Source of the DNA: a virus
Strand: one strand, 5' to 3'
Virus record (IMG/VR): IMGVR_UViG_3300045141_000107
Coordinates: 26,206 to 90,205 of that record
Length of the DNA stretch: 64,000 nucleotides
The notes beneath the pieces were generated by a model that had not been told where the DNA came from, ran no database searches, and was given only the letters and a program-made list of their open reading frames with translations. Both the position numbers and the translations under genes were made by a program. Of this stretch, positions 218-31,430 are shown one piece after another. Position 1 is the stretch's first letter, and each line of letters begins with the position of its first letter.

Positions 218-732
218 TACGGCATCATTGCCCTTAGACCGAATGCACGGCGCTTGCCTCTGTAGCGCGTGTTGCTTAGTGCACCAATGGGAGGTGTGAG
301 GCCACCAATGACGTTGGGGATGTGACTGTCGTTCTGAAGCTCTACATGGTTGCCAGCAGGCATAGTCACCACGGCTTTGTTACTGACAGGCTTGCGGTAA
401 GGCTTGACGTAGCTGTTGGACTTGACTACAGACCCGTGCCGCAGGTTTACAGACATGGGTTCCGTGTGTATACCCTGGTCGAACAGGACCAGAGAGACCT
501 GTGCAGCACGTGGTGTCAGGTACACATACCGCAGCTTCTTTTCTGGGTCGGTGAAGCGGATAGTCTGCACATCCACAGACACAGACTTGGCTGTAGGAAA
601 CGCTGCCCGCACTGCATCAGCCCACATGCAGTGTGATGAACTACGTGCCTCAGCGTTCTGGATAATCTCCTCCGTAACCGTGATCGTCAGCTTAGGTGCA
701 TGTGGTCGTCTAACTGTAGTTTGCTCTGCCAC
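217..732 (-). CDS. hypothetical protein
   Basis: ORF track 217..789; GTG at 732 follows a purine-rich RBS-like sequence and is the more likely start. Confidence 0.6.
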   Translation of the reverse strand: MAEQTTVRRPHAPKLTITVTEEIIQNAEARSSSHCMWADAVRAAFPTAKSVSVDVQTIRFTDPEKKLRYVYLTPRAAQVSLVLFDQGIHTEPMSVNLRHGSVVKSNSYVKPYRKPVSNKAVVTMPAGNHVELQNDSHIPNVIGGLTPPIGALSNTRYRGKRRAFGLRAMMP

Positions 733-752
733 GATTTGTCCCTTTCTCCACA

Positions 753-802
753 TAAACAAACGGGGCGAAGGTGTGACACACAGCACCAACGCCCCGCTGT
801 TT
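753..802 (-). terminator. stem-loop, possible terminator after the DUF932-like gene
   Basis: inverted repeat AAACA(A)ACGGGGCG ... CGCCCCGCTGTTT, T-rich at the 3' end on the minus strand. Confidence 0.45.
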
Positions 803-822
803 CCGCTCTAGGCGGTCCTCTG

Positions 823-1932
823 CTACGCTTCTGCTAGCGCTGCCGCCCTACGCCGTTCCCGCTTGGGCATAACGCGGTGACAGGTTTCACAGATGCTGTG
901 ATGCTGAACAATATTGCCGCCCACCCGCATAAGGCGACGTACAAGGCTTGGATCCTCCAAGACCCTGCTGTAGTTTGACGCCACGTAGGTCACGTGGTTA
1001 GCCAACTGATACAGGTTTTCTACAGGATGGTTAACCAGCCTGTTGCGGATCATGTCGCGGACAGCAGGTGGGATGCCGAAATCTGCCAGCATTGCTGCAA
1101 GCTCTTCGTCAGTGTGGCTACCCACTGCGACGTCTTTCAACGCCTTGAAGCGGTCCACCTCTGTGCCCACCCGATCGAGGATAGTGGGTACGTTGGTGGT
1201 AATCCACTCTTTGTCGTCCGACTCTTCACGGCTCCTGCCGTAGTGCGCTACGTTCTGGGTGCTGGTCATGCCGTTGGTGCACACCAGACGCTCCCAGTAA
1301 CCAGAGAGATCCAACCCTAGACCAGTGCCACCAGGGGCACTGTACCCGTATGGGCTGACGTAGAGCTGGATGCCACTGGTAACTACGTCGTTAACCTTGG
1401 CTCCTTGTGCCCCACCTTCAAGACGCTGGTAGTCCTTGCCGCCCATGCTGTACTCGTTGTTACCAACAAGCGAGATATACTGGCGGTCAGGGGTTCCCCA
1501 GACCTTGTACCCCTTGACGTTTCTGCGACCACCCATTGCACGCTCTACGGTGCGCATGTAGTCAACGGGGTCACGCACTTCGACCTTACCATCGATGATG
1601 GCTTGGATCTCACCGTCACGTGTTAGTGCTTTGAGGGAGCCTTGCCGTTCCCTGAAGCTGTGATCGAGCAGAGCCACAACGTGCTCCTGGGCTGGTGTGC
1701 CCATGTACTTGAGCATGCTATTACTCTGCAAGCCGCTAACCCGGAAGATGGTATCCCAGGCACCCTGGCCCAGAGGCATGGTATCGTCCTTGTTGCCGAA
1801 GCGGTACTGGACTTTACCACTGGTGCCCACTTGCAACCCGTAGCTGTCGTCTGGGGCGAACTGGCGTTCCTGCAACCCGCTAAAGGGTAGGAGCGTCTGC
1901 AGTGCCGTGTCACGATCAACCATTTGCGTCAT
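823..1932 (-). CDS. DUF932-like phage protein
   Basis: 369 aa; RLVCTNGM motif typical of the DUF932 family; C-terminal CxxC. Confidence 0.65.
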   Translation of the reverse strand: MTQMVDRDTALQTLLPFSGLQERQFAPDDSYGLQVGTSGKVQYRFGNKDDTMPLGQGAWDTIFRVSGLQSNSMLKYMGTPAQEHVVALLDHSFRERQGSLKALTRDGEIQAIIDGKVEVRDPVDYMRTVERAMGGRRNVKGYKVWGTPDRQYISLVGNNEYSMGGKDYQRLEGGAQGAKVNDVVTSGIQLYVSPYGYSAPGGTGLGLDLSGYWERLVCTNGMTSTQNVAHYGRSREESDDKEWITTNVPTILDRVGTEVDRFKALKDVAVGSHTDEELAAMLADFGIPPAVRDMIRNRLVNHPVENLYQLANHVTYVASNYSRVLEDPSLVRRLMRVGGNIVQHHSICETCHRVMPKRERRRAAALAEA

Positions 1933-10321: not shown

Positions 10322-10618
10322 CTAGAAGCTTGCTTCTTCCTCTTCGTCGTCCTTTACGTTGGGCGCAGGAAACATCTTCTCAAGACGTGCCTGCTCGGCT
10401 GGTTCAAGCAGGTGAACGGAGAAGCTGCGCCAGTATTCGTTCTCTCTTCTTAGCATCTTCTCGTTGTGGTCCATTATCTCTTTGAGATCTAATATCTGTT
10501 TGTCCTTGGATTCTATCAGCGCTTTGGACAGATACGATATCGCTCCAGTCAACACGCCCATAATGCCGCCAATAGCTGCAAGTGTTGTGAGATTTAGAAC
10601 GAATTGTTCGTCCGCCAC
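10322..10618 (-). CDS. membrane protein (N-terminal TM + coiled coil), lysis cassette
   Basis: LAAIGGIMGVLTGAISYL hydrophobic segment followed by a charged heptad region. Confidence 0.6.
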   Translation of the reverse strand: MADEQFVLNLTTLAAIGGIMGVLTGAISYLSKALIESKDKQILDLKEIMDHNEKMLRRENEYWRSFSVHLLEPAEQARLEKMFPAPNVKDDEEEEASF

Positions 10619-10623
10619 AGTTT

Positions 10624-11727
10624 CTACGGCCGATTGGGGAATGGGGGTGTTGGTAGGGGTGGGCGAGGTGTTATCGTTGGTCTGGGCGTAAAGGTTGGCC
10701 GAGGCGTAAAAGTAGGACGCGGAGTGAACAGCCGATCTATTAACGAAGGTGTATTTGTTGGCCTCGGGGTCGGGGGTGGCACACTTGTTGGTGGCACAGA
10801 GGTAGGAGGTAAAGGGACAGATGTACTGGTCGGCACCTCCGGTACTCGTGTTGGTTGTGCCGGTACCGACGTCGCAGTAGGTATTACAACTGGTGGCGCA
10901 CTGGTAGGGGTTGGCTGGCTTGGGATTGGTGTAGACGGTGCTACAGGAGCATCTGTGGGGCGCCCAACAACGGGTGTGTTTGTAGCAGCTCCAGGAACTG
11001 ACGGTGACGTCGGCTGAACAGGTACAGGAGTGTTAGTTGCCTGCCCTGGAGCGACAGGTACAGATGTATTCGTCGGCGGGCTACCTGGGGACTGTATAGG
11101 GCCAGATGCGATAACCGTCTGCGGCGTGGGAGCACTATCGTCTTCTGGCTCTGGTGTAAATACAGGGGTAACCACGTCAACAACCCTATCCGGTTCCCTG
11201 GCTGACTCCGCGGCAATGGGTTCTCCATTTTGGTCTGGTACTTCCTGTTCTGGCTCCGGAGTAGCTGTTGGTATGATAACTATGGTAGCCTGAGGCTTTA
11301 CTGCGGGCTTGGGTGCCACAGGAATAGCTATCGTCGCCACCAGGAACGGTGTAGACGTAGGACCTGCTTGTTCTATTGGTGTTGGATTGGTTTCTACTGA
11401 CACCACGTTGTTGTCCTCGTCTACATCTACCGCCAGCACAACTGGAGTTGCTTCCTGTGTCGGCACACCCTCAGCCTGCACACCTTGTGCAGAAACTACA
11501 ACATCCCCCTGAGCATTGTGGCTAAGTGTCACTTGCAGCGCTACTGGAGCTATCGGGGTCTCCGTTGGCCCGATTGTCGCCGTAGGAATAGGCGTGGGTG
11601 AAGGCGGTATTGCATTGACTACATGGACAGCCGATATATTCACTATCAGCAGCATGAGTCCAACGCCAGCCCAACCAGCAACAAACATCCATGCCCAAGG
11701 ACCAAGATAGCCCCAGAACGACCTCAT
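10624..11727 (-). CDS. membrane-anchored Pro/Thr-rich protein
   Basis: likely start ATG 11727 (ATGA overlap); N-terminal TM/signal segment, then ~300 aa of PTATP/PTFTPRP-type low complexity. Confidence 0.65.
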   Translation of the reverse strand: MRSFWGYLGPWAWMFVAGWAGVGLMLLIVNISAVHVVNAIPPSPTPIPTATIGPTETPIAPVALQVTLSHNAQGDVVVSAQGVQAEGVPTQEATPVVLAVDVDEDNNVVSVETNPTPIEQAGPTSTPFLVATIAIPVAPKPAVKPQATIVIIPTATPEPEQEVPDQNGEPIAAESAREPDRVVDVVTPVFTPEPEDDSAPTPQTVIASGPIQSPGSPPTNTSVPVAPGQATNTPVPVQPTSPSVPGAATNTPVVGRPTDAPVAPSTPIPSQPTPTSAPPVVIPTATSVPAQPTRVPEVPTSTSVPLPPTSVPPTSVPPPTPRPTNTPSLIDRLFTPRPTFTPRPTFTPRPTITPRPPLPTPPFPNRP

Positions 11728-11894
11728 CTCAATAGAATTGCTACGTTGGTGGCTCCAAGCAATATCGCCGTCTGAGCATCCATCTTGTTGGTCAGCCACA
11801 GAACCAAACAAGCAACGATGACCAGGATCGCAATCAGCGCACCAATCCACCCACCGTATACCACGGGATAAGTACGCGTCGTCTGTACTGCCAT
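11724..11894 (-). CDS. 56-aa membrane protein (not in ORF track)
   Basis: MAVQTTRTYPVVYGGWIGALIAILVIVACLVLWLTNKMDAQTAILLGATNVAILLR; TAATG and ATGA couplings at both ends. Confidence 0.65.
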   Translation of the reverse strand: MAVQTTRTYPVVYGGWIGALIAILVIVACLVLWLTNKMDAQTAILLGATNVAILLR

Positions 11895-12109
11895 TATGTG
11901 CCTCCCTCGTTGGGTGCAGCCGGAACTAGATACGCTACGCCGAAACTGATGACCGTGATCAGTGCACCCGCTACAACCACAGGCATCGTAATACCGAACA
12001 TACTGAGTACCCAGATGATGATGGTAGTCACAGCCGCACCAACACCACCCGCTGTTACTTTCCGTACTGGTGCAGCAGATGGAGCATCAACTGATTTGGC
12101 TTCACTCAT
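11894..12109 (-). CDS. holin (2 TM)
   Basis: RKVTAGGVGAAVTTIIIWVL and VVAGALITVISFGVAYLVP TM segments, directly after the endolysin. Confidence 0.7.
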   Translation of the reverse strand: MSEAKSVDAPSAAPVRKVTAGGVGAAVTTIIIWVLSMFGITMPVVVAGALITVISFGVAYLVPAAPNEGGT

Positions 12110-12846
12110 ACACAAGCCTCCAGACCCAGATCGTTAGCCAGTGCTTGGAACCGCCCAGAGTTCCACCATCTGTTCCCACAGCACTGCGTCCGTGAGCTAG
12201 GGCTGATGATGCGGTGACCCATCAAGTACCTGATGTCTGGGAACATCTTCAGGGCAACCTGGCACACTTCCAGCGTACCCTGGTACTGAGCATCGGTTAC
12301 TGTCGTGCTGCCAGAGCCATTGTCTTCTGTCTCAACGGTTACCGTCTGGTAGTTAGGGTTCTGGCTGTTGCCCACAATGCCCACCCACTTGTTACCAGAC
12401 TCTAGGATACCGTTTGCCCAGGAACCATCTCGCAAGTTTACGTATTGATGCTTCTGCCCTCCTAAGCCAATACCAAAGTGAGAAGAGACTTGTGCAGCAG
12501 AATTCTGAAACCAATTGTCACATGAAGACAGGGTGCCAGCCATCGTATGAATCACAATAGCTACTACCCGCATGCCAGCCCTACCGTTGTAATGATTGGG
12601 GCTGGCGATGTACTGGATATTCGCTTCTGGCGGTATGGGTGGTGGTATGTCGCGCGTGTACAGTGGACTTCTGGAATTGAGCCTTCCCGTCCAAGTTGGA
12701 TTCAGCGCCAGTAGCCAACCTTCAACGGAATCTGCCCCGGACTCCGACGCCAACCACCTACCATCTTCCATCGCAGCCAAGGCGCGTGTGATAGCAGACT
12801 GTTGCTGGCTCAGAGTAGCCATTCGCCATTCCAGGTTGTCGTCCAT
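12106..12846 (-). CDS. endolysin, N-acetylmuramoyl-L-alanine amidase (Amidase_2)
   Basis: SPNH..R, IVIHT, SSHFGIG, GHR...CCG zinc-amidase motifs; likely start ATG 12846 (TGATG coupling). Confidence 0.85.
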   Translation of the reverse strand: MDDNLEWRMATLSQQQSAITRALAAMEDGRWLASESGADSVEGWLLALNPTWTGRLNSRSPLYTRDIPPPIPPEANIQYIASPNHYNGRAGMRVVAIVIHTMAGTLSSCDNWFQNSAAQVSSHFGIGLGGQKHQYVNLRDGSWANGILESGNKWVGIVGNSQNPNYQTVTVETEDNGSGSTTVTDAQYQGTLEVCQVALKMFPDIRYLMGHRIISPSSRTQCCGNRWWNSGRFQALANDLGLEACV

Positions 12847-13025
12847 CAGTACAGTGGCTTCTTGGGGCTTGTTTGGATATTGGGATCTAGCGCCTTGACC
12901 CAACCATCCACGGTATCGGCCCCACCAGCCCAACGAGCTTCAAGTGCAGCCCTGATTGCGTTGGTCTGATAAGCCTGCTGCTGCTCAAGCTGGTGTATCT
13001 TAGCCGCCATTTCCTCAGGGTTCAT
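12846..13025 (-). CDS. 59-aa protein paralogous to the endolysin N-terminal domain (not in ORF track)
   Basis: GGAG RBS; MNPEEMAAKIHQLEQQQAYQTNAIRAALEARWAGGADTVDGWVKALDPNIQTSPKKPLY. Confidence 0.7.
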   Translation of the reverse strand: MNPEEMAAKIHQLEQQQAYQTNAIRAALEARWAGGADTVDGWVKALDPNIQTSPKKPLY

Positions 13026-13284
13026 GGTTTACTCCGTTCATGCTTTGTTCTTCCTTGGGTGTGATGAGTAGTTCGTTCTGTTCTTCCTTGAATTCAACAC
13101 TGTAACTCTCTGGCAATTTCTCACCAGCCTGATCTGCTATCAAGAGAATCACATCACGCACGTTCTGCTCGGCAAGCTTGGCTGCATTTATGGCAGCTTG
13201 CACTACCGAATTTGCCTCATCAGAGTGTCCTATCAAGTAGGACAACCTCCTTGCAGTATGGTTGTTGAGTTGCAGTGTTATCAT
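13015..13284 (-). CDS. hypothetical protein
   Basis: 89-aa ORF with GGAG RBS. Confidence 0.55.
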   Translation of the reverse strand: MITLQLNNHTARRLSYLIGHSDEANSVVQAAINAAKLAEQNVRDVILLIADQAGEKLPESYSVEFKEEQNELLITPKEEQSMNGVNHEP

Positions 13285-13291
13285 GGCGCTC

Positions 13292-14365
13292 CTAGTGTGG
13301 ATATGTAGTGGTCGGGCAGTAGACTAGCCACAGATTGCCGTTCATGCCTGCTCCAAAGTTGCAGTTCATCTGCACAGCAACAACCGTCCCTGCATTGACA
13401 AGAACTGCACCACCAGCTCCATCATAACCAGTATGCCAGCCGTAGTTTGTGGCTCCAGGAGCAGGGTTGTTGAAGTTCTGTTGCGTCCCAATACTACCAC
13501 CAAACCTGAACCTGATGAAGCCACCGTATGGAGCAGGAGCACCACCACCGAAGTAGCAGTGTATCATTCCTGCCCAATAACCTGTTCTGTTTACGGTAAT
13601 AGCTGCGATGTCTACCCACTGCCCACCAGTACCTGAGCTACCTACACTAAGACCAGTACTCAGGACAGATAACGCAGGAGGCAAGACTCTGTTGTAGGCA
13701 GCTTCCCAGCTCTCACCGTTGCTCCATACACGACTTGGACCCCAGGCACTATTGGCTCTAGCTTGCCAAGTGTCTCTCTGGTTGACCATGTCGTTGTAGT
13801 AGCCGACGTAGGCGTTGTAGTTCTGCTCCCAGGTAGAACCATTGTTCCACTGTCGGCTTGGTCCCCAGTAGTAGTCTGCCTGTCCCTTCCAATAGGCAGC
13901 AGTCTGGCTCCAGAAGACAGCATTTGCTGGTTGCCCAGGATAGCTGTAAGCATAACCCTGAGGATCTCTGGCATTTCGCCACTCATTACCCCATTGAGCA
14001 TTCCACTGCTCAGCGGTGGTGGAGTAGAACTGTCCGTTGTTCCAGCCTGGCGGATGCTGCGCCCCTAGTCCAGAGCTACCCTGGCCTCCACCAGTATCAC
14101 GAGCATTGTTGTACTCTGTGACGTACATTGGAATCCACTGTCCGGCAGTGGTACTCCAAAGCTGTCCATTTACCCACCCTGTAGGATGTGATCCAGTAGA
14201 GGTGTCCCTAGCGTTGGCGTACTCTGTGTTATATCCGGTCTGCCACTGTGTAGACGTAGTAGACCAGCGCTGTCCGGGTGTATACCCAGAAGGAGGATGG
14301 ACTCCTGTGCTATTGTCGTTAGCCTGCCCAACCCAATAGCCTACTTGAGAAGCAGCGTATGTCAT
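13292..14365 (-). CDS. Trp/Tyr-rich repeat protein, putative fibre or receptor-binding protein
   Basis: repeats EYxNARD...HPxGWxxGQxWSTTAxQW, beta-rich C-terminal domain; distal to the baseplate genes. Confidence 0.55.
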   Translation of the reverse strand: MTYAASQVGYWVGQANDNSTGVHPPSGYTPGQRWSTTSTQWQTGYNTEYANARDTSTGSHPTGWVNGQLWSTTAGQWIPMYVTEYNNARDTGGGQGSSGLGAQHPPGWNNGQFYSTTAEQWNAQWGNEWRNARDPQGYAYSYPGQPANAVFWSQTAAYWKGQADYYWGPSRQWNNGSTWEQNYNAYVGYYNDMVNQRDTWQARANSAWGPSRVWSNGESWEAAYNRVLPPALSVLSTGLSVGSSGTGGQWVDIAAITVNRTGYWAGMIHCYFGGGAPAPYGGFIRFRFGGSIGTQQNFNNPAPGATNYGWHTGYDGAGGAVLVNAGTVVAVQMNCNFGAGMNGNLWLVYCPTTTYPH

Positions 14366-15216
14366 GCTGCCCTCCACTGGATGCCATTGCTCTTGAAGCT
14401 GTATGCATCGCCAGCGACTACTATACCGTTCTGGACAGCGCCAGTAACCAGATTAGTAGACCCTCCAAACACCGTGCTGCCACCAGTAGCAGTTACCGTG
14501 ATTGTACCAGCCTCAGCAGCAACTGTGATGGGTCTTTCTGTTAGTGTTGGGTCTGGAAGCACTAAGCTCTGTGCAGATGCCAGATAGCCGAAGAAGAACA
14601 GCTTGCCTGCCAACATCGCAGCGGTAACGGGTGTGACATTGGACCTGAGAGTTGTGTTCTTGTACATGCTCTCAGGATCACTACCCGTGCTAGGGTGTAA
14701 GTAGGCAAGGCAGGTACCGCCAGCGGGGTTCTCCAGAGCAATCCCAAACGCTGCGGAGGTACCAAGTGCAGTACCAGTAGCTATAACACTGTTATCCTGC
14801 GTTACGAGGTACTGGAGGCGGCTGATACCAGTAGCCTTCGTCCGCACAAAACCTTCCATCGCAACGCGTCCGACAGCACCAGCGGCGATGTCTTCTACAA
14901 CAACGCCAACCATCTCACCTCTGGCGCCTGCGACTGGCATGATGAAACCTCGGTCCACAGCAGGATCGAGCATCACCACGTCGCCACTTTGTCTGGCAGC
15001 ACCAGTATTGTTCACGAAGTCCTGGCTTAGCCCACCTGTGAGGGTGATAGTGGAGAAACTCCATCTGCCAGTGATTACTTCGTTGAAATCAAAGAAAGTG
15101 CTCCTATCACTCAGGCTCGAGTTGAATCTGGTGGTATCCCTAACACCAGCGTTTGGTGTAGGGTCATCATCAGTTACCTCTGGAAGTAGAAATCCGTGTC
15201 GAACGGTTGTTTGCAT
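14362..15216 (-). CDS. baseplate-associated / fibre-anchor protein (DUF2190-like middle domain)
   Basis: follows the DUF2313-like gene; NNTGAARQSGDVV...VGVVVEDIAAGAVGRV pattern. Confidence 0.5.
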   Translation of the reverse strand: MQTTVRHGFLLPEVTDDDPTPNAGVRDTTRFNSSLSDRSTFFDFNEVITGRWSFSTITLTGGLSQDFVNNTGAARQSGDVVMLDPAVDRGFIMPVAGARGEMVGVVVEDIAAGAVGRVAMEGFVRTKATGISRLQYLVTQDNSVIATGTALGTSAAFGIALENPAGGTCLAYLHPSTGSDPESMYKNTTLRSNVTPVTAAMLAGKLFFFGYLASAQSLVLPDPTLTERPITVAAEAGTITVTATGGSTVFGGSTNLVTGAVQNGIVVAGDAYSFKSNGIQWRAA

Positions 15217-26341: not shown

Positions 26342-27613
26342 TTACGATGGTGGTGGTGGACCGCCCGGATCTAGTTTTGCCATGATGACCTTGAGATAAT
26401 CACGCAGTTCTGCATCTACCGCTGGACCTTGTGCTGTTGCTGCCTGTGGTGGCGGTACTCCACCTGGATCTAGTATCGACATCAAGTTCTGTACGTAAAT
26501 ACGCAATTGTGTGTCGGCACCAACCATCGTAGCGGCACCATATGAGATTATAACACGTTCGGTACCATTGAATGGCTCACTGAAAGTTACTGTGTTGCCA
26601 CCGTCCGTCAGCATATAGTTGCCATCGACAATTGACTGAACCACGCCGCCTCTGGCCACAAACAGCAAGACGATAGCTGGCATACTAAGATGAACAACAG
26701 TATCACCAGCAAGTGGAACAAATTCCTCGTGAGCACCAGTCGATGTTGCCCCTGGCGTACCCATTACGCCTTGTGGTCCTGGATCCCCCTTAGGTCCAGG
26801 ATTCCCCTGTGGTCCAGTGGGTCCAGTAGCACCAGGCTGTCCCTGTGGCCCGGTCTTCCCATCGAACCCTTGTGGACCCATCAAGCCCTGTGGACCTCTA
26901 GGTCCTTCTGGGCCTTCGTTACCCCTGGGGCCTAGATCGCCTTTGGGTCCAGTAGCGCCAGCAGGACCAGCTAGGCCAGTTGGTCCAGGATTACCTTGCG
27001 GGCCAGCAGGTCCCGCAGGTCCAGGCACGGTGCTGTCTTTTCCGGGAGGGCCAGAAGTACCGGGAGGGCCTGCGGGACCAGCGGGTCCGGGAGGTCCGAC
27101 TATAACGTCGTCGGCTATTTCCGAATTGTTAACATAAACATTATCACCGTTGACGTTAGTAGTACCGCCACTAACATTAGTGATACCACCAACCAGATTA
27201 ATCGTGACTTTTCCAGTTACAGGATCCTCTATAACTTCCAGACCAGCAAACTCACCACCAGCTCTGTCGTTGTTCAGGCCAAACCGAGCACGATATATCT
27301 GGTCTGCACTGGTACGGGTCTTGAACAGGATAACCCAACGCCTCTTGGACAGAGGGGCCATAACAACCGTGTCGCCAGTTGTTATGAACAGATCCTCTGG
27401 TATAAGCAAGTCACCCTTGGAATGGTCAAAGATCATCGGGCCACCCATGGAAGACTCACCATCCATGGATATCGTGATCTCTGGCAAAGCAGTGAGGACA
27501 ACACCAGTTCTGAGGACAAGCCCTGTGCCCGTAAGGGCATTCATCTTGTCCTCTTGATCTGCAATGTTACGCAGAAGGTTTAGAAACTTCTGCGGCCCAT
27601 CTATCGTGGTCAT
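26342..27613 (-). CDS. baseplate spike-position protein with collagen-like G-X-Y repeats
   Basis: follows the hub gene; OB-fold-like N-terminus; long GPxGPx tract. Confidence 0.6.
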
Positions 27614-29841
27614 TAGTTGGGAATCCTATTGAGCACGGTCTGTTTCCACGCAGGCCACTGCGGACCAGGACACTCTGTTGAATAAGCATCCTTGTGGCCT
27701 TCTACAGTAAGCTTCCTACCAATCTTCTTCTGGCAGTAGCCGATAGCATTAGCCATACCTGTCATCTGCTCGTCATTAGGTGCTACGTCACCAGCATAAC
27801 AGATACCGACATAGGTCTGGTTCCTACCGCTAGCCGCACTGTGCCAACACGCTACATTGAGGTCCCATGCCATAGACGTCTTACCATCTTGCTCGACAAA
27901 GAACGTGTATGCCAGACCTGGGAACGGAGTGTTGTTACCAGTTTGTCCCCTGGCTGCTTCAGAAGTCTGATACTGAGCCACTTGGTAGGCTGTCTGGCTA
28001 GCAGGACCAGCAGTGTAGTGGAGCGTCACACCAGTAATGGCACTAATATCTCGCTGGGAGTAATTGGCTTCGTGGTTCGTGGGTAGCTGGCCTATGACGT
28101 TGACCGGCTGCCAATCTGGGGAAGTCTTCTGTGCACCAGAACCTACGATAGCACGCACATACTCCACTTTGGCATTGTACTCACCCTGTGGTGTACCACC
28201 ACCTGCTCCATTCCAGTTGGGATAGACGTGCCACTGGCGGAATCCTGCTTCACCACCACCAGCACCCTTCCAGATACCATAAGCTGCTCTGGCATTTGTA
28301 GCTGGAGCTGCCAGGACGTCTGGCCCACCATACGTCGGCCAATGTACCTCGTTGATCTGCCACAACCCTGTATCATGCCCATTGACGGGATAGGTCATGT
28401 CGCAGTTGCCGCATTCGTACAAGCTAATGGCGACCATCTTGATTGCATCGTCATTAGTCTGTACAGGCGAGAAACCAGCCGCCACAGCCAGTTGGTATCT
28501 GTCAAGGACGCTAACCGAGCCAGACATCTTGGTCCACTCACGGCCAGACGGTACAGCAGTCTGCCCGCCACTACCAGCCACGGCTGGACCAAGCAGATCG
28601 CTACCAGCAGAGCTAGCCTTCGTCTGTGCTCTAGCTGCGTAGGCTTCAGGCAGTGCATCTTCAATGTTCACCGTAAGAGACATTGAAGCTTCTTGGTCTG
28701 ATACTGTGTGGGTACCCGACTTTACGTAGTATTTACCAACCAGACCAGTAATCTCATCACGGATATGTACAGGGTCGCCAGCCCGCACCGTGTTGATATT
28801 GAAGGTGGTGATAGTACCTGTGTTCTCAAACTTCACCAACTTCTTATACAGCTTCATGCCCTGCTGTTCTGCATTAGCTCTGTCGTTACCCAGATCGAGT
28901 GCTACCTCGCCAGGTGCTTGCAGATCTACAGACTCTGAGAACATACCGTACTTGTTGACTTCTTTATCGTTTCCAGCCTCAATAACATCCTGGGCAGGCC
29001 ACTGGAAGATCAGACTTGGTCCACCACCACTACCACCCTCCAGCAGATCATTAGCAGTGCTGCCTCCAGAACTACCCTTGTAGACCCTGATGACGTTTGA
29101 GTAGTTCTCCATGCTAAAGTTGTTCTGTGAGGAGAAGATATTTCCAGGGTTGTTGTTCCAAGAGTCTGGCCCAGGCTCGAACATACCACGATTGAAGTTC
29201 CAGATGCCACTTGGTGGAGTACGCGCCACAAGCTCTACCTTGCCAGCATTCTCCTGCAACAGGAACCGTGCATCAGCATTGATGTCTCTGGTATAGGACA
29301 ACGCAGAGACCCACATGTCCCAGATGGTACGGTTCATGAACGGCTCACGCTCTAGCTGCACACCAGTGTCCATGATAGTGCCCAACGGTATACCGTAGTA
29401 TGCAGCCGTGCGCGTGATGAACTGGCTAGCCGTCTCGCTCTCAAGCATAATAGAGTCTTTATTACGCATGATGTACCACATGACGTTGTAGCCAGTAGCT
29501 TGGAGAGTGCCACCCTCTTCACTACTCAAAGTGGTCTTGGAGATAAATGCCCTCTTGAGCAGGTCCCAAGTCATCTCAAGGTTACTACCTACCGGACGTA
29601 CACCGTACCCATAGATCTTAATCCTGTCACCAGGCTTGACAAGATTAGCAATGTTCTGCGTGTGGGCAAAAGTGACGGTATAATGCTCAGCAGGTTGGTC
29701 AAGATCGTAATCCCACTGAATGGAGGTTACGATCTCAGTAAAGTCCTGGCTAGTGCCAAGGTCAGCACTAACCACCACGACCTTGTATTCACTTATCTTG
29801 AGGTCGTTGATGTTTGGGGTTTGCGTACTAAGTAGTGGCAT
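27613..29841 (-). CDS. baseplate hub (XkdQ-like) with lysozyme-like and amidase domains
   Basis: hub N-terminus; AISLYE...GLWQIN (lysozyme/SLT-like); HYTAG...WH...GHKD...ECPG (Amidase_2). Confidence 0.75.
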
Positions 29842-31430
29842 TAGAATTTGGGCGGCATGCCCTTCCTTGGTGTCTCAGAAGGTGTATTCTTCGGCATACC
29901 AATTGTGTTGTCGGTACCAGCAGAGCCAGTAGTTGTCGGACCAAGTTGTGCACCAGCCCCAACAGGACCAGTAGACAATCCAGCCCCTACAGCTCCAGTT
30001 CCAGCAGCAGCGGCTCCAGCTACTGCTGTCGCAGCACCTTCCACAGCAGTAACGGCTTGATCGATAACAGTCGGCTTGGCTGCGGATACTGGCTGTTCGC
30101 TGTAGTACCTCACACCGCTACCAACCTTGAGGGGACTAGTGTAGGGATCATAATGGTTGTCCAAAACCCACTGGTTTAGAGCCAATAGGGTAGACATGTC
30201 ATTTGGTCCCTTACTGTTCACCCTACCCATTACCTGAGAAAGTGTTTCGCCAGGATGCCTATATTCGTCAGGCAAATTGGGGTCGTTGGGATCTATGTAG
30301 CCGATGTTTGGATCAACATGCTGGAGGTTTAGAGGCTCTTCCACAACCAGCGTAGTCTCAATGTGGATAAGAGAATCTCTACCGCCAGTGTGGTCAGTTG
30401 GTGGGGTAGTGGGAGTATCCGGTACCACTGGTACTTCAGCAGGGTTAGGATCAGTGTTGTCTGGAATCTCAACAGCAACACCAGAATCCGTGGTAGCACC
30501 AGGCTTGCGCGGATCCTTAGGCCACCTGTCCTTCTCAGAGTCTGGGTTAGGCGACGTGGTGACAATCGGCGCACGGTACCTTTTCATGGAGATCGTGTAG
30601 TAAATGTCGAAGATCTCACCAGCTTTGTGTCTGTAGTTGAAGTTGGTGATTACTACCTGATCATTCCATATGCCGCCACCTACCACCAGCATACAGTTCA
30701 TCTTGAATCGCATTGTCCAGATTAGTCTGGACGTTAGCGACCTGGGATCCTCAAGCTCAGTTGGTGTGATGAACATGTAGTCTGAATCGTAGTGGCTCGG
30801 GAAGAAGCTGTCCCAGCTGATAGTCTCCATTGACTGCCCGCCAGGCATGATGATCTCACCCAGACCAACTACTCTCGGTGTCCAGTATTCATGGGTGAAA
30901 TCAGCGCCAAACTCCTCTGGCATTACGGGAAACTTGATGTCTCCACCGTATGCCCCTAAGAGTGTGATATCAATGAAATTACGCTGCGCACCCTCCCCCA
31001 TTGTGGGGGAACCATCGATCTCAACGCACGGAGTCCAGTCGTGCTTGGGATTGATCTCAATAAGATTAGGTGCACTTCTTGCTGGGACAAAGATGTTGGT
31101 GCCGCTAGCTGTCCCACCACCAGGCACTCCATTGTTCAGCCAGGGTGCATAGCCTGGAGGTGGCGGATCTTTGGTACTAAGGCCCCAGACATCTGTATCA
31201 ACTCCAAGACCTGAAGTACGCATTGTACCATCAGGCCATTTGGGGCCAAACTTTGGACCTACTGTCTCAAAGGTGTCGAACTCTACGTCGCCCTGCCAGT
31301 AAGTCTTCTTCCGCATCTCCAGGCCAACAGACCCTGGATATGTAGGATCTGTGGCATTGGGGTCAAAGTAGACTTGCTCGCCTACCTGTACGGCATCAAA
31401 GCCTTCACCTGTTTCAGGGTTCATTGTCAT
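29841..31430 (-). CDS. tail tube initiator (XkdP-like, degenerate LysM)
   Basis: FPVMPEE, GLGEI, ISWDSFFP, DIYYTISMKRYR; PGETLSQV...LALN...LKVG. Confidence 0.65.
   Translation of the reverse strand: MTMNPETGEGFDAVQVGEQVYFDPNATDPTYPGSVGLEMRKKTYWQGDVEFDTFETVGPKFGPKWPDGTMRTSGLGVDTDVWGLSTKDPPPPGYAPWLNNGVPGGGTASGTNIFVPARSAPNLIEINPKHDWTPCVEIDGSPTMGEGAQRNFIDITLLGAYGGDIKFPVMPEEFGADFTHEYWTPRVVGLGEIIMPGGQSMETISWDSFFPSHYDSDYMFITPTELEDPRSLTSRLIWTMRFKMNCMLVVGGGIWNDQVVITNFNYRHKAGEIFDIYYTISMKRYRAPIVTTSPNPDSEKDRWPKDPRKPGATTDSGVAVEIPDNTDPNPAEVPVVPDTPTTPPTDHTGGRDSLIHIETTLVVEEPLNLQHVDPNIGYIDPNDPNLPDEYRHPGETLSQVMGRVNSKGPNDMSTLLALNQWVLDNHYDPYTSPLKVGSGVRYYSEQPVSAAKPTVIDQAVTAVEGAATAVAGAAAAGTGAVGAGLSTGPVGAGAQLGPTTTGSAGTDNTIGMPKNTPSETPRKGMPPKF

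Follow-up and report, generated by a model that had tools for sequence, protein, structure and literature searches.

The question raised by this locus is why a soil phage should carry, overlapping the start of its endolysin gene, a second and very small gene whose product resembles the beginning of that same endolysin. The window, that is the whole stretch of 64,000 nucleotides that was analysed, comprises bases 26206-90205 of a 90,205-base IMG/VR record (IMGVR_UViG_3300045141_000107) with an estimated completeness of 98%. PHROG matches, every one in a minus-strand gene, to the large terminase, portal, major head protein, tail sheath, tape measure and baseplate identify a contractile-tailed phage; tRNA genes were searched for and none was found. 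Behind the structural genes, and also on the minus strand, genes overlap in a chain that consists of an 89-aa ORF, the 59-aa ORF of interest, the endolysin gene, a holin gene and a gene for a 56-aa membrane protein (Table 1). As read from the sequence, successive members of this chain overlap by 11, 1, 4 and 1 nt, the holin ATG (12109-12107) lying across the last codon and stop of the endolysin. No Pfam or PHROG family was matched by the 89-aa ORF, which is kept at another locus, L003, and has an unrelated ORF in its place at L005. The 56-aa membrane protein, also without a significant Pfam or PHROG family, is possibly a second holin-like protein.

Table 1. Features of the lysis region, with positions counted along the window
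Feature	Position	Strand	Basis or remark
89-aa ORF, function unassigned	13015..13284	-	First in the overlapping chain; its end overlaps the start of the small gene by 11 nt
GGAG Shine-Dalgarno-like motif	13032..13035	-	6 nt upstream of the small-gene ATG; read from sequence
Small gene, 59-aa free-standing S-type module	12846..13025 (coding 13025-12849, stop TGA 12848-12846)	-	ORF and translation
TGATG junction	12844..12848	-	Small-gene stop overlaps the endolysin ATG (12846-12844) by 1 nt
Endolysin gene, 246 aa	12106..12846 (coding 12846-12109, stop 12108-12106)	-	Amidase_2 and PHROG lysis families
Endolysin N-terminal N-type module, residues 1-63	12658..12846	-	Paralogue of the small protein
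Proline-rich linker, about residues 64-80, TRDIPPPIPPEANIQY	12607..12657	-	Low-pLDDT segment 54-69 in model
Amidase_2 catalytic domain, about residues 81-246	12109..12606	-	Profile match, alignment, model
Holin gene	11894..12109	-	phrog_9284, E 2.6e-13
56-aa membrane protein	11724..11894	-	Hydrophobic stretch read from sequence; TAATG-coupled to the holin

Several neighbours of this chain are recorded here in their own right. Directly after the holin genes (10624-11850, minus strand) is a Pro/Thr/Val-rich protein with an N-terminal membrane anchor, listed as an ORF of 408 aa whose true start is probably further in; it has no family match, is conserved in L003, and is followed by a 98-aa membrane and coiled-coil protein (10322-10618). 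Between the baseplate and lysis genes (13292-14377, minus strand) a 361-aa protein is encoded in which Trp-rich motifs (W-S-T-T..Q-W, N-A-R-D) recur; it too is conserved in L003, lacks a Pfam or PHROG match and is a candidate tail fibre or receptor-binding protein. The tail region holds two more proteins with hydrolase domains, presumably entry lysins: a 742-aa tail protein (27613-29841, minus strand) with a C-terminal amidase at residues 589-735, and a 529-aa protein (29841-31430, minus strand) with a phrog_380 endolysin-like domain. Neither of them carries the module described below, since the whole record has only two matches to it.

An earlier note, made from the letters of this DNA, had pointed to a 59-aa ORF that was coupled by a TGATG to the amidase gene and was alike, from end to end, to about the first 63 residues of the amidase. 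The ORF is present as claimed, from its ATG at 13025 to its TGA at 12848-12846, the junction is found in the sequence, and the likeness proved to be far beyond chance. BLASTP of the small protein against the 246-aa endolysin gave 21 identities in 56 positions (38%) with an E value of 2e-9, residues 9-59 aligning with residues 8-63. The Smith-Waterman score was 89, against 23.9 +/- 5.1 (maximum 58) for 2000 shuffles of the endolysin's N-terminal 70 aa, and not one of the shuffles reached 89. When a profile of 29 small proteins was compared with a profile of 25 endolysins, hhalign returned a probability of 98.2% and an E value of 3.5e-14 over 61 columns. These alignments establish true paralogy between the small protein and endolysin residues 1-63. 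The two kinds of copy, called here S-type (free-standing) and N-type (at the endolysin N-terminus), can be told apart by their own profiles; at L003, for example, they score 130 (S) and 44 (N) bits in the one case and 40 (S) and 126 (N) bits in the other.

An ORF as short as this one, and absent from the ORF track that accompanied the earlier note, could be a chance ORF, or a leader or upstream ORF that is translated for the sake of coupling only, and thus not a functional protein gene. We consider this hardly credible, and it is already contradicted by the selection data. Across 29 small-protein sequences 24 of 59 columns are invariant, and the median dN/dS of the small gene is 0.207 (64 unique sequences; calculated from pairs with pS between 0.05 and 0.6 only, the mean pS being 0.62), like that of the catalytic domain (0.236, 44 sequences), the N-terminal module having 0.266 (55 sequences). 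In scans the gene was found at 75 metagenome and 4 viral loci, down to 47% identity, and in the window it has a Shine-Dalgarno-like motif of its own. Conservation of the ORF, on which the proposal of the earlier note depended, is thus accompanied by purifying selection, and the small ORF is a real gene. Public gene calls do include it, as 28 homologous clusters (57-71 aa, 66-93% identity) are already predicted in metagenomes, all of them unnamed or 'hypothetical' except for one labelled 'coiled-coil protein SlyX'; a conserved gene for a 59-aa protein can evidently be omitted from an annotation track. The small protein had no tblastn match at E up to 1 in 50,697 isolated-phage records, and no relative was found with the small-protein alignment in prophages of bacterial genome contigs.

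The association between the small gene and the endolysin gene was followed through 80 loci including the window, some of which are duplicated between collections, and which together hold 62 unique pairs of small protein and N-module. Six of these loci have less than 250 nt downstream of the small gene and no module was seen in them; the remaining 74 are informative. At 70 of the 74 the gene for the N-type module starts within 2 nt of the small-gene stop or overlaps it, 68 being recognised by a start-codon rule and two more (L017, L018) having the module directly after the small gene where the rule failed. Three loci (L026, L031, L039) have an insert of 549-632 nt between the small gene and the endolysin gene, the insert being an oppositely oriented gene for an HNH_3 endonuclease (E 4.4e-17), and two of the six uninformative loci (L035, L042) end inside the same insert. 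The only informative locus with neither arrangement is L044 (small gene 595-772), where the 466 nt downstream have no match to the module or to HNH. It is worth recording separately that at L031 the HNH_3 homing-endonuclease gene (533-1090, minus strand) lies exactly between the small gene and the endolysin gene, and that this same site between the genes holds two different HNH genes which are 37% identical.

The form of the junction varies from locus to locus, with overlaps or gaps of -1, -4, -8, -14, +1 and +2 nt. Of the 18 unique loci whose genes are joined by TGATG or TAATG, 13 have a Shine-Dalgarno-like match of at least 4 nt upstream of the small gene and 2 have one upstream of the endolysin, and the endolysin start in the window has no such match. 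Because the small gene has a Shine-Dalgarno motif and the window's endolysin does not, the endolysin is probably translated by re-initiation after the small gene. A programmed frameshift fusing the small protein to the amidase was considered and rejected, as the frame of the endolysin differs between loci; no slippery heptamer was seen in the window. Two deep clades, in which both partners are co-inherited, account for the 62 unique pairs. Parallel changes between the clades occur at homologous positions, T changing to S, and W changing to Y or F in the small protein but to I in the N-module, but these are effectively one event and hence no statistical claim of covariation between the modules is made.

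The catalytic part of the endolysin was identified as Amidase_2 (PF01510) at residues 92-224, with an E value of 2.5e-14 and 54.1 bits against a cut-off of 26. The endolysin also matches PHROG lysis families, and 24 related clusters were collected. In an alignment of 25 endolysin relatives H100, H211 and C222 are invariant, and by analogy with the T7-lysozyme family these residues may be the zinc ligands. The earlier note had described a proline linker ahead of the catalytic domain and no visible C-terminal wall-binding domain. The sequence TRDIPPPIPP does follow the module, and the secondary structure of the endolysin model runs to residue 245, which leaves no room for a C-terminal binding domain; as the linker is succeeded by a catalytic domain that reaches the C-terminus, the enzyme has no accessory domain besides its N-module. 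Among isolated phages, the catalytic domain is nearest to lysins from phages of Streptomyces, Bifidobacterium, Bacillus and Paenibacillus (32-46% identity). The N-terminal module is left uncovered in the best 25 of the 28 matching phage records, where the matches begin at residue 69 or later.

The suggestion that the region shared by the two proteins is a possibly undescribed module was borne out by searches of several kinds. Among 67 module sequences compared with Pfam at E up to 0.01 there was no match to a wall-binding or other relevant family (PG_binding_1, LysM, SH3b, CW_7, LGFP etc.), the sole Pfam match, of one sequence to YafQ_toxin (E 0.0037), being taken as chance. Five module proteins had no match in NCBIfam, the small protein's only PHROG match was at E 0.055, and a PDB sequence search with the module profile returned only chance matches (beta-propeller 'YALNP' repeats and the tetranectin coiled coil, E 0.41). 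An AlphaFold2 model of the module, built from a 67-sequence alignment, has a pLDDT of 93.8 and consists of a helix at residues 3-28, a 10-residue loop, a second helix at 39-46 and an ordered tail; the same module within a model of the full-length endolysin, for which only 25 sequences were available, scored poorly (block means 42-63). Foldseek gave no match to the module at E up to 0.001, VIA-align a best Z of 5.2 with all matches being generic helical hairpins such as Rop and Vta1, and the ESM Atlas a best score of 0.82, which is at noise level. From its sequence and model the module is an undescribed helix-loop-helix unit of approximately 55 aa, not a known wall-binding domain.

The distribution of the module was explored with a profile of 25 cut module sequences, a mixed alignment of short and long proteins being unsuitable since hmmbuild kept the catalytic columns. 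Among 1.84 billion representative proteins, 75 clusters matched this profile at E up to 0.001, and 17 still did so at a limit of 1e-10. P0105, a false match to a beta-propeller repeat, was removed from the 75, which left 74. Forty-seven of these are no longer than 115 aa, a few of which look like truncated pieces of fused forms and which include a tandem pair (P0095) and a chimera with the PheRS N-terminal domain (P0119). In the latter, a 114-aa protein, a clear module copy adjoins, without a break, the N-terminal domain of the PheRS alpha subunit (PF02912, E 2e-16); the fusion may be genuine or a product of sequence assembly. In the remaining clusters the module is N-terminal (9/74), C-terminal (17/74, including P0062, which looks like an over-extended or truncated gene call) or an N-terminal tandem pair (P0099). 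By Pfam and PHROG the fused partners are NlpC/P60 (P0099) and, behind an N-terminal module, Amidase_2 (P0063, P0067), a GH19 or phrog_181 endolysin (P0065), an Rv2525c-like glycosidase or phrog_291 endolysin (P0115) and a Cys- and His-containing domain without a family (P0071, P0073 and the enzyme of locus L080). Barrels resembling Glyco_hydro_cc carry the module at their C-terminus, with P0122, P0132 and P0129 at or above the Pfam cut-off and P0089 and P0082 below it. On this pattern the module is a mobile unit that shuffles like an accessory domain of many wall hydrolases.

The module also tends to occur in twos. In the amidase clade an S-type small gene precedes the fused N-type copy. In L080, and in the cut-short locus L054, a small gene precedes an N-module that is fused to an unrelated domain of 222 aa without a Pfam or PHROG match, so that the pair has come through a swap of the catalytic domain. 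Tandem non-identical modules about 58 residues apart within one chain were found in P0099 and P0136 (both NlpC/P60), P0135 (Rv2525c-like) and P0095, and by the classic argument from same-chain fusions this suggests that the separately encoded copies interact. A further case is the virus record G001, in which two adjacent glycosidase-like genes carry one module each, one N-terminal (a weak match, E 9.8e-4) and the other C-terminal (P0082). The tendency to occur in twos refers to these cases, and not to most of the 47 short clusters nor to the single-module enzymes of GH19, Rv2525c-like and C-terminal types. For the latter enzymes, single-protein scans of viral contigs found nothing; a degenerate DNA pattern for other module enzymes gave seven loci of which only L087 is real, and a second such pattern gave two matches, both by chance.

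Two observations on these enzymes may be added. What replaces the amidase behind the N-module at L080 (480-1148), as a cut copy at L054, and in P0071 and P0073 is a C-terminal domain of about 150 aa with conserved Cys and His (W-x-C-S..., Y-H-W-V) and no match in Pfam, NCBIfam or PHROG, and it may be an undescribed cysteine-peptidase-type endolysin domain. G001, which is GC-rich and is represented by loci L087, L090 and L091, has a third adjacent putative glycosidase gene, which is GH25-like and has no module.

It could be supposed that the two paralogues form no complex and act separately, for example with each binding the wall or another target or with the small protein serving some other late step, and that their linkage merely reflects an origin by tandem duplication. 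The module folds confidently as a monomer in its model and so need not pair, a point which also counts against the heteromer proposed below, and many short module proteins exist beyond those whose gene neighbourhood is established. Against separate action are the adjacency at 70 of the 74 informative loci, maintained down to 47% identity of the small protein, the retention of translational coupling as well, the persistence of the pairing after the catalytic domain was swapped, and the existence of tandem fusions. We therefore regard separate action as improbable.

The reading that we prefer is that the endolysin is a heteromer encoded by two genes, with two non-identical modules that would pair as the only accessory domain of the enzyme, possibly for wall targeting; to this we give an even chance. 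The earlier note had offered either an oligomerisation or wall-binding module supplied in extra copies or a dominant-negative lysis timer. The first of these gains in part, from the paralogy, the selection on the small gene, the tight coupling and the undescribed nature of the module, its extra copies being unsupported, and the second is disfavoured. In the proposed mechanism the small protein and the N-module of the endolysin, with one copy of the module in each polypeptide, would pair into a small helical-bundle accessory domain. Since the amidase gene lacks a separate ribosome-binding site and begins on the stop of the small gene, the enzyme would be made only after the small protein, by ribosomes fresh from the small gene, and its partner would be kept at least equimolar. 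Neither protein has a hydrophobic leader, as read from the sequences, and without export signals the complex would form in the cytoplasm, from which it would reach the wall through the holin that is encoded next. The paired modules would be the sole non-catalytic part of the enzyme and would most likely serve in wall targeting or assembly. A structure prediction for a complex of the full-length endolysin and the small protein, run without controls, scored 0.31 against a mark of 0.32 and thus speaks neither for nor against pairing.

The same early and at least equal production of the small protein would also suit a regulator or timer, in which the free module, by binding the N-module or by vying with it for a partner or a site on the wall, would keep the enzyme inactive or delay lysis. 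Paralogy offers a ready means of competing, and in CTP1L a secondary product is reported to regulate activity (PMC4777826). Tandem pairs fused in cis to enzymes would make little sense for an inhibitor, however, the pair persists through two deep clades and a catalytic-domain swap, and timing is already supplied by the holin. It is because the modules are mobile and recur in twos that pairing in a heteromer is favoured over a dominant-negative timer, which we think unlikely.

Within the heteromeric reading, pairing, a 1:1 stoichiometry and wall targeting are all inferred from the genes, and wall targeting is the weakest step. It is proposed because these enzymes have no other binding domain, because the module changes between N-terminal and C-terminal positions from one catalytic type to another, because proline-rich linkers of the kind typical of binding domains join it to the enzymes, and because the nearest isolated relatives of the catalytic domain are found in lysins of Gram-positive phages. 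By a count from the sequences both modules are mildly acidic, which speaks against it, as many wall-binding domains of Gram-positive phage lysins are not acidic like these modules. To our knowledge, a helical hairpin is also not a known wall-binding fold. Plain oligomerisation or stabilisation would fit equally well.

A more general proposal, which is tentative and which we hold to be somewhat more doubtful than not, is that the module of about 55 residues is a 'pairing module' and an obligate two-copy unit, the second copy being supplied in cis, from a small gene or by a second enzyme, and that it equips many unrelated hydrolases of soil phages. If so, the locus would represent a new class of two-gene heteromeric endolysin with paralogous subunits whose ratio is set by translational coupling. 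Multimeric endolysins were long treated as curiosities, and recent work suggests that they are common, by way of internal starts and known binding domains. Recurrence of the module in pairs, with six or more kinds of catalytic domain, would, if true, reveal a new way of building phage lysins, one that allows the second module copy to come from a gene of its own, and would provide a new accessory domain for lysin engineering. It would also follow that amidases expressed alone, as is routine in enzybiotic screens, may be unstable or inactive if the small partner is needed.

A limited literature search found no paper on an endolysin with an upstream gene paralogous to its own N-terminal domain. 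Among the Amidase_2 endolysins (PGRP or T7-lysozyme type) the catalytic domain described here is an ordinary member, but it is accompanied by an N-module that is covered by none of the isolated-phage matches listed, and by a small protein without a match at E up to 1 in the isolated-phage records. The closest analogues are Ms6 Gp1/LysA, PlyC and the internal-start heteromers, none of which is homologous.

Of these, Ms6 Gp1/LysA has the most similar gene layout. [quoted passage not shown] This layout, including the HNH interruption, raises the possibility that our small protein is a Gp1-like chaperone that binds the N-terminal domain and stabilises the endolysin or aids its delivery across the membrane. 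Homology between the two was not apparent when the module profile was compared with Bxb1 gp7, one presumed family member (hhalign probability 0.4%), which was taken as Gp1-like from its position and from a statement on subcluster A1 in the same portions (PMC3111421); nor is Bxb1 gp7 a paralogue of the N-terminus of its own lysin (best E 0.10). Ms6 Gp1 is linked to holin-independent export, whereas the cassette described here has a canonical holin, and modules at C-termini and in tandem would be unsuited to acting as an N-terminal export signal. For these reasons a chaperone of this type seems to us rather improbable.

Parallels for the heteromeric reading are offered by PlyC and the internal-start enzymes. 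In PlyC of the streptococcal phage C1, as outlined in the sections of the source concerned with its structure (PMC10604209), the catalytic PlyCA is joined by eight wall-binding PlyCB subunits whose octameric ring docks on a central helical domain of PlyCA. As in PlyC, catalytic and non-catalytic polypeptides here come from separate adjacent genes, although the holoenzyme is in our case a predicted one; as in PlyC, too, a helical element of the catalytic chain would serve for docking, and the other subunit is small and would be non-catalytic. PlyCB is not presented in those sections as a copy of a part of PlyCA, whereas the partner here is a paralogue of the enzyme's N-module, and no PlyC chain was among the PDB matches to the module profile at E up to 10. 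With the internal-start heteromers (Lys170, LysIME-EF1, CTP1L, CD27L, CS74L and LysP7951) the likeness is of another kind, namely an additional copy of the enzyme's own non-catalytic domain. According to the passages of the source that treat these enzymes (PMC9430671), extra copies of the non-catalytic domain join the full-length chain in ratios of 1:3, 2:2 or 1:5, and the isoforms of LysP7951 are inactive until assembled. There the second polypeptide arises from an in-frame internal start and is identical to a C-terminal wall-binding domain of known type, whereas the partner in the present system is encoded by a separate upstream gene in another frame, is 38% identical to its counterpart, corresponds to the N-terminus of the enzyme and belongs to an undescribed helical family.
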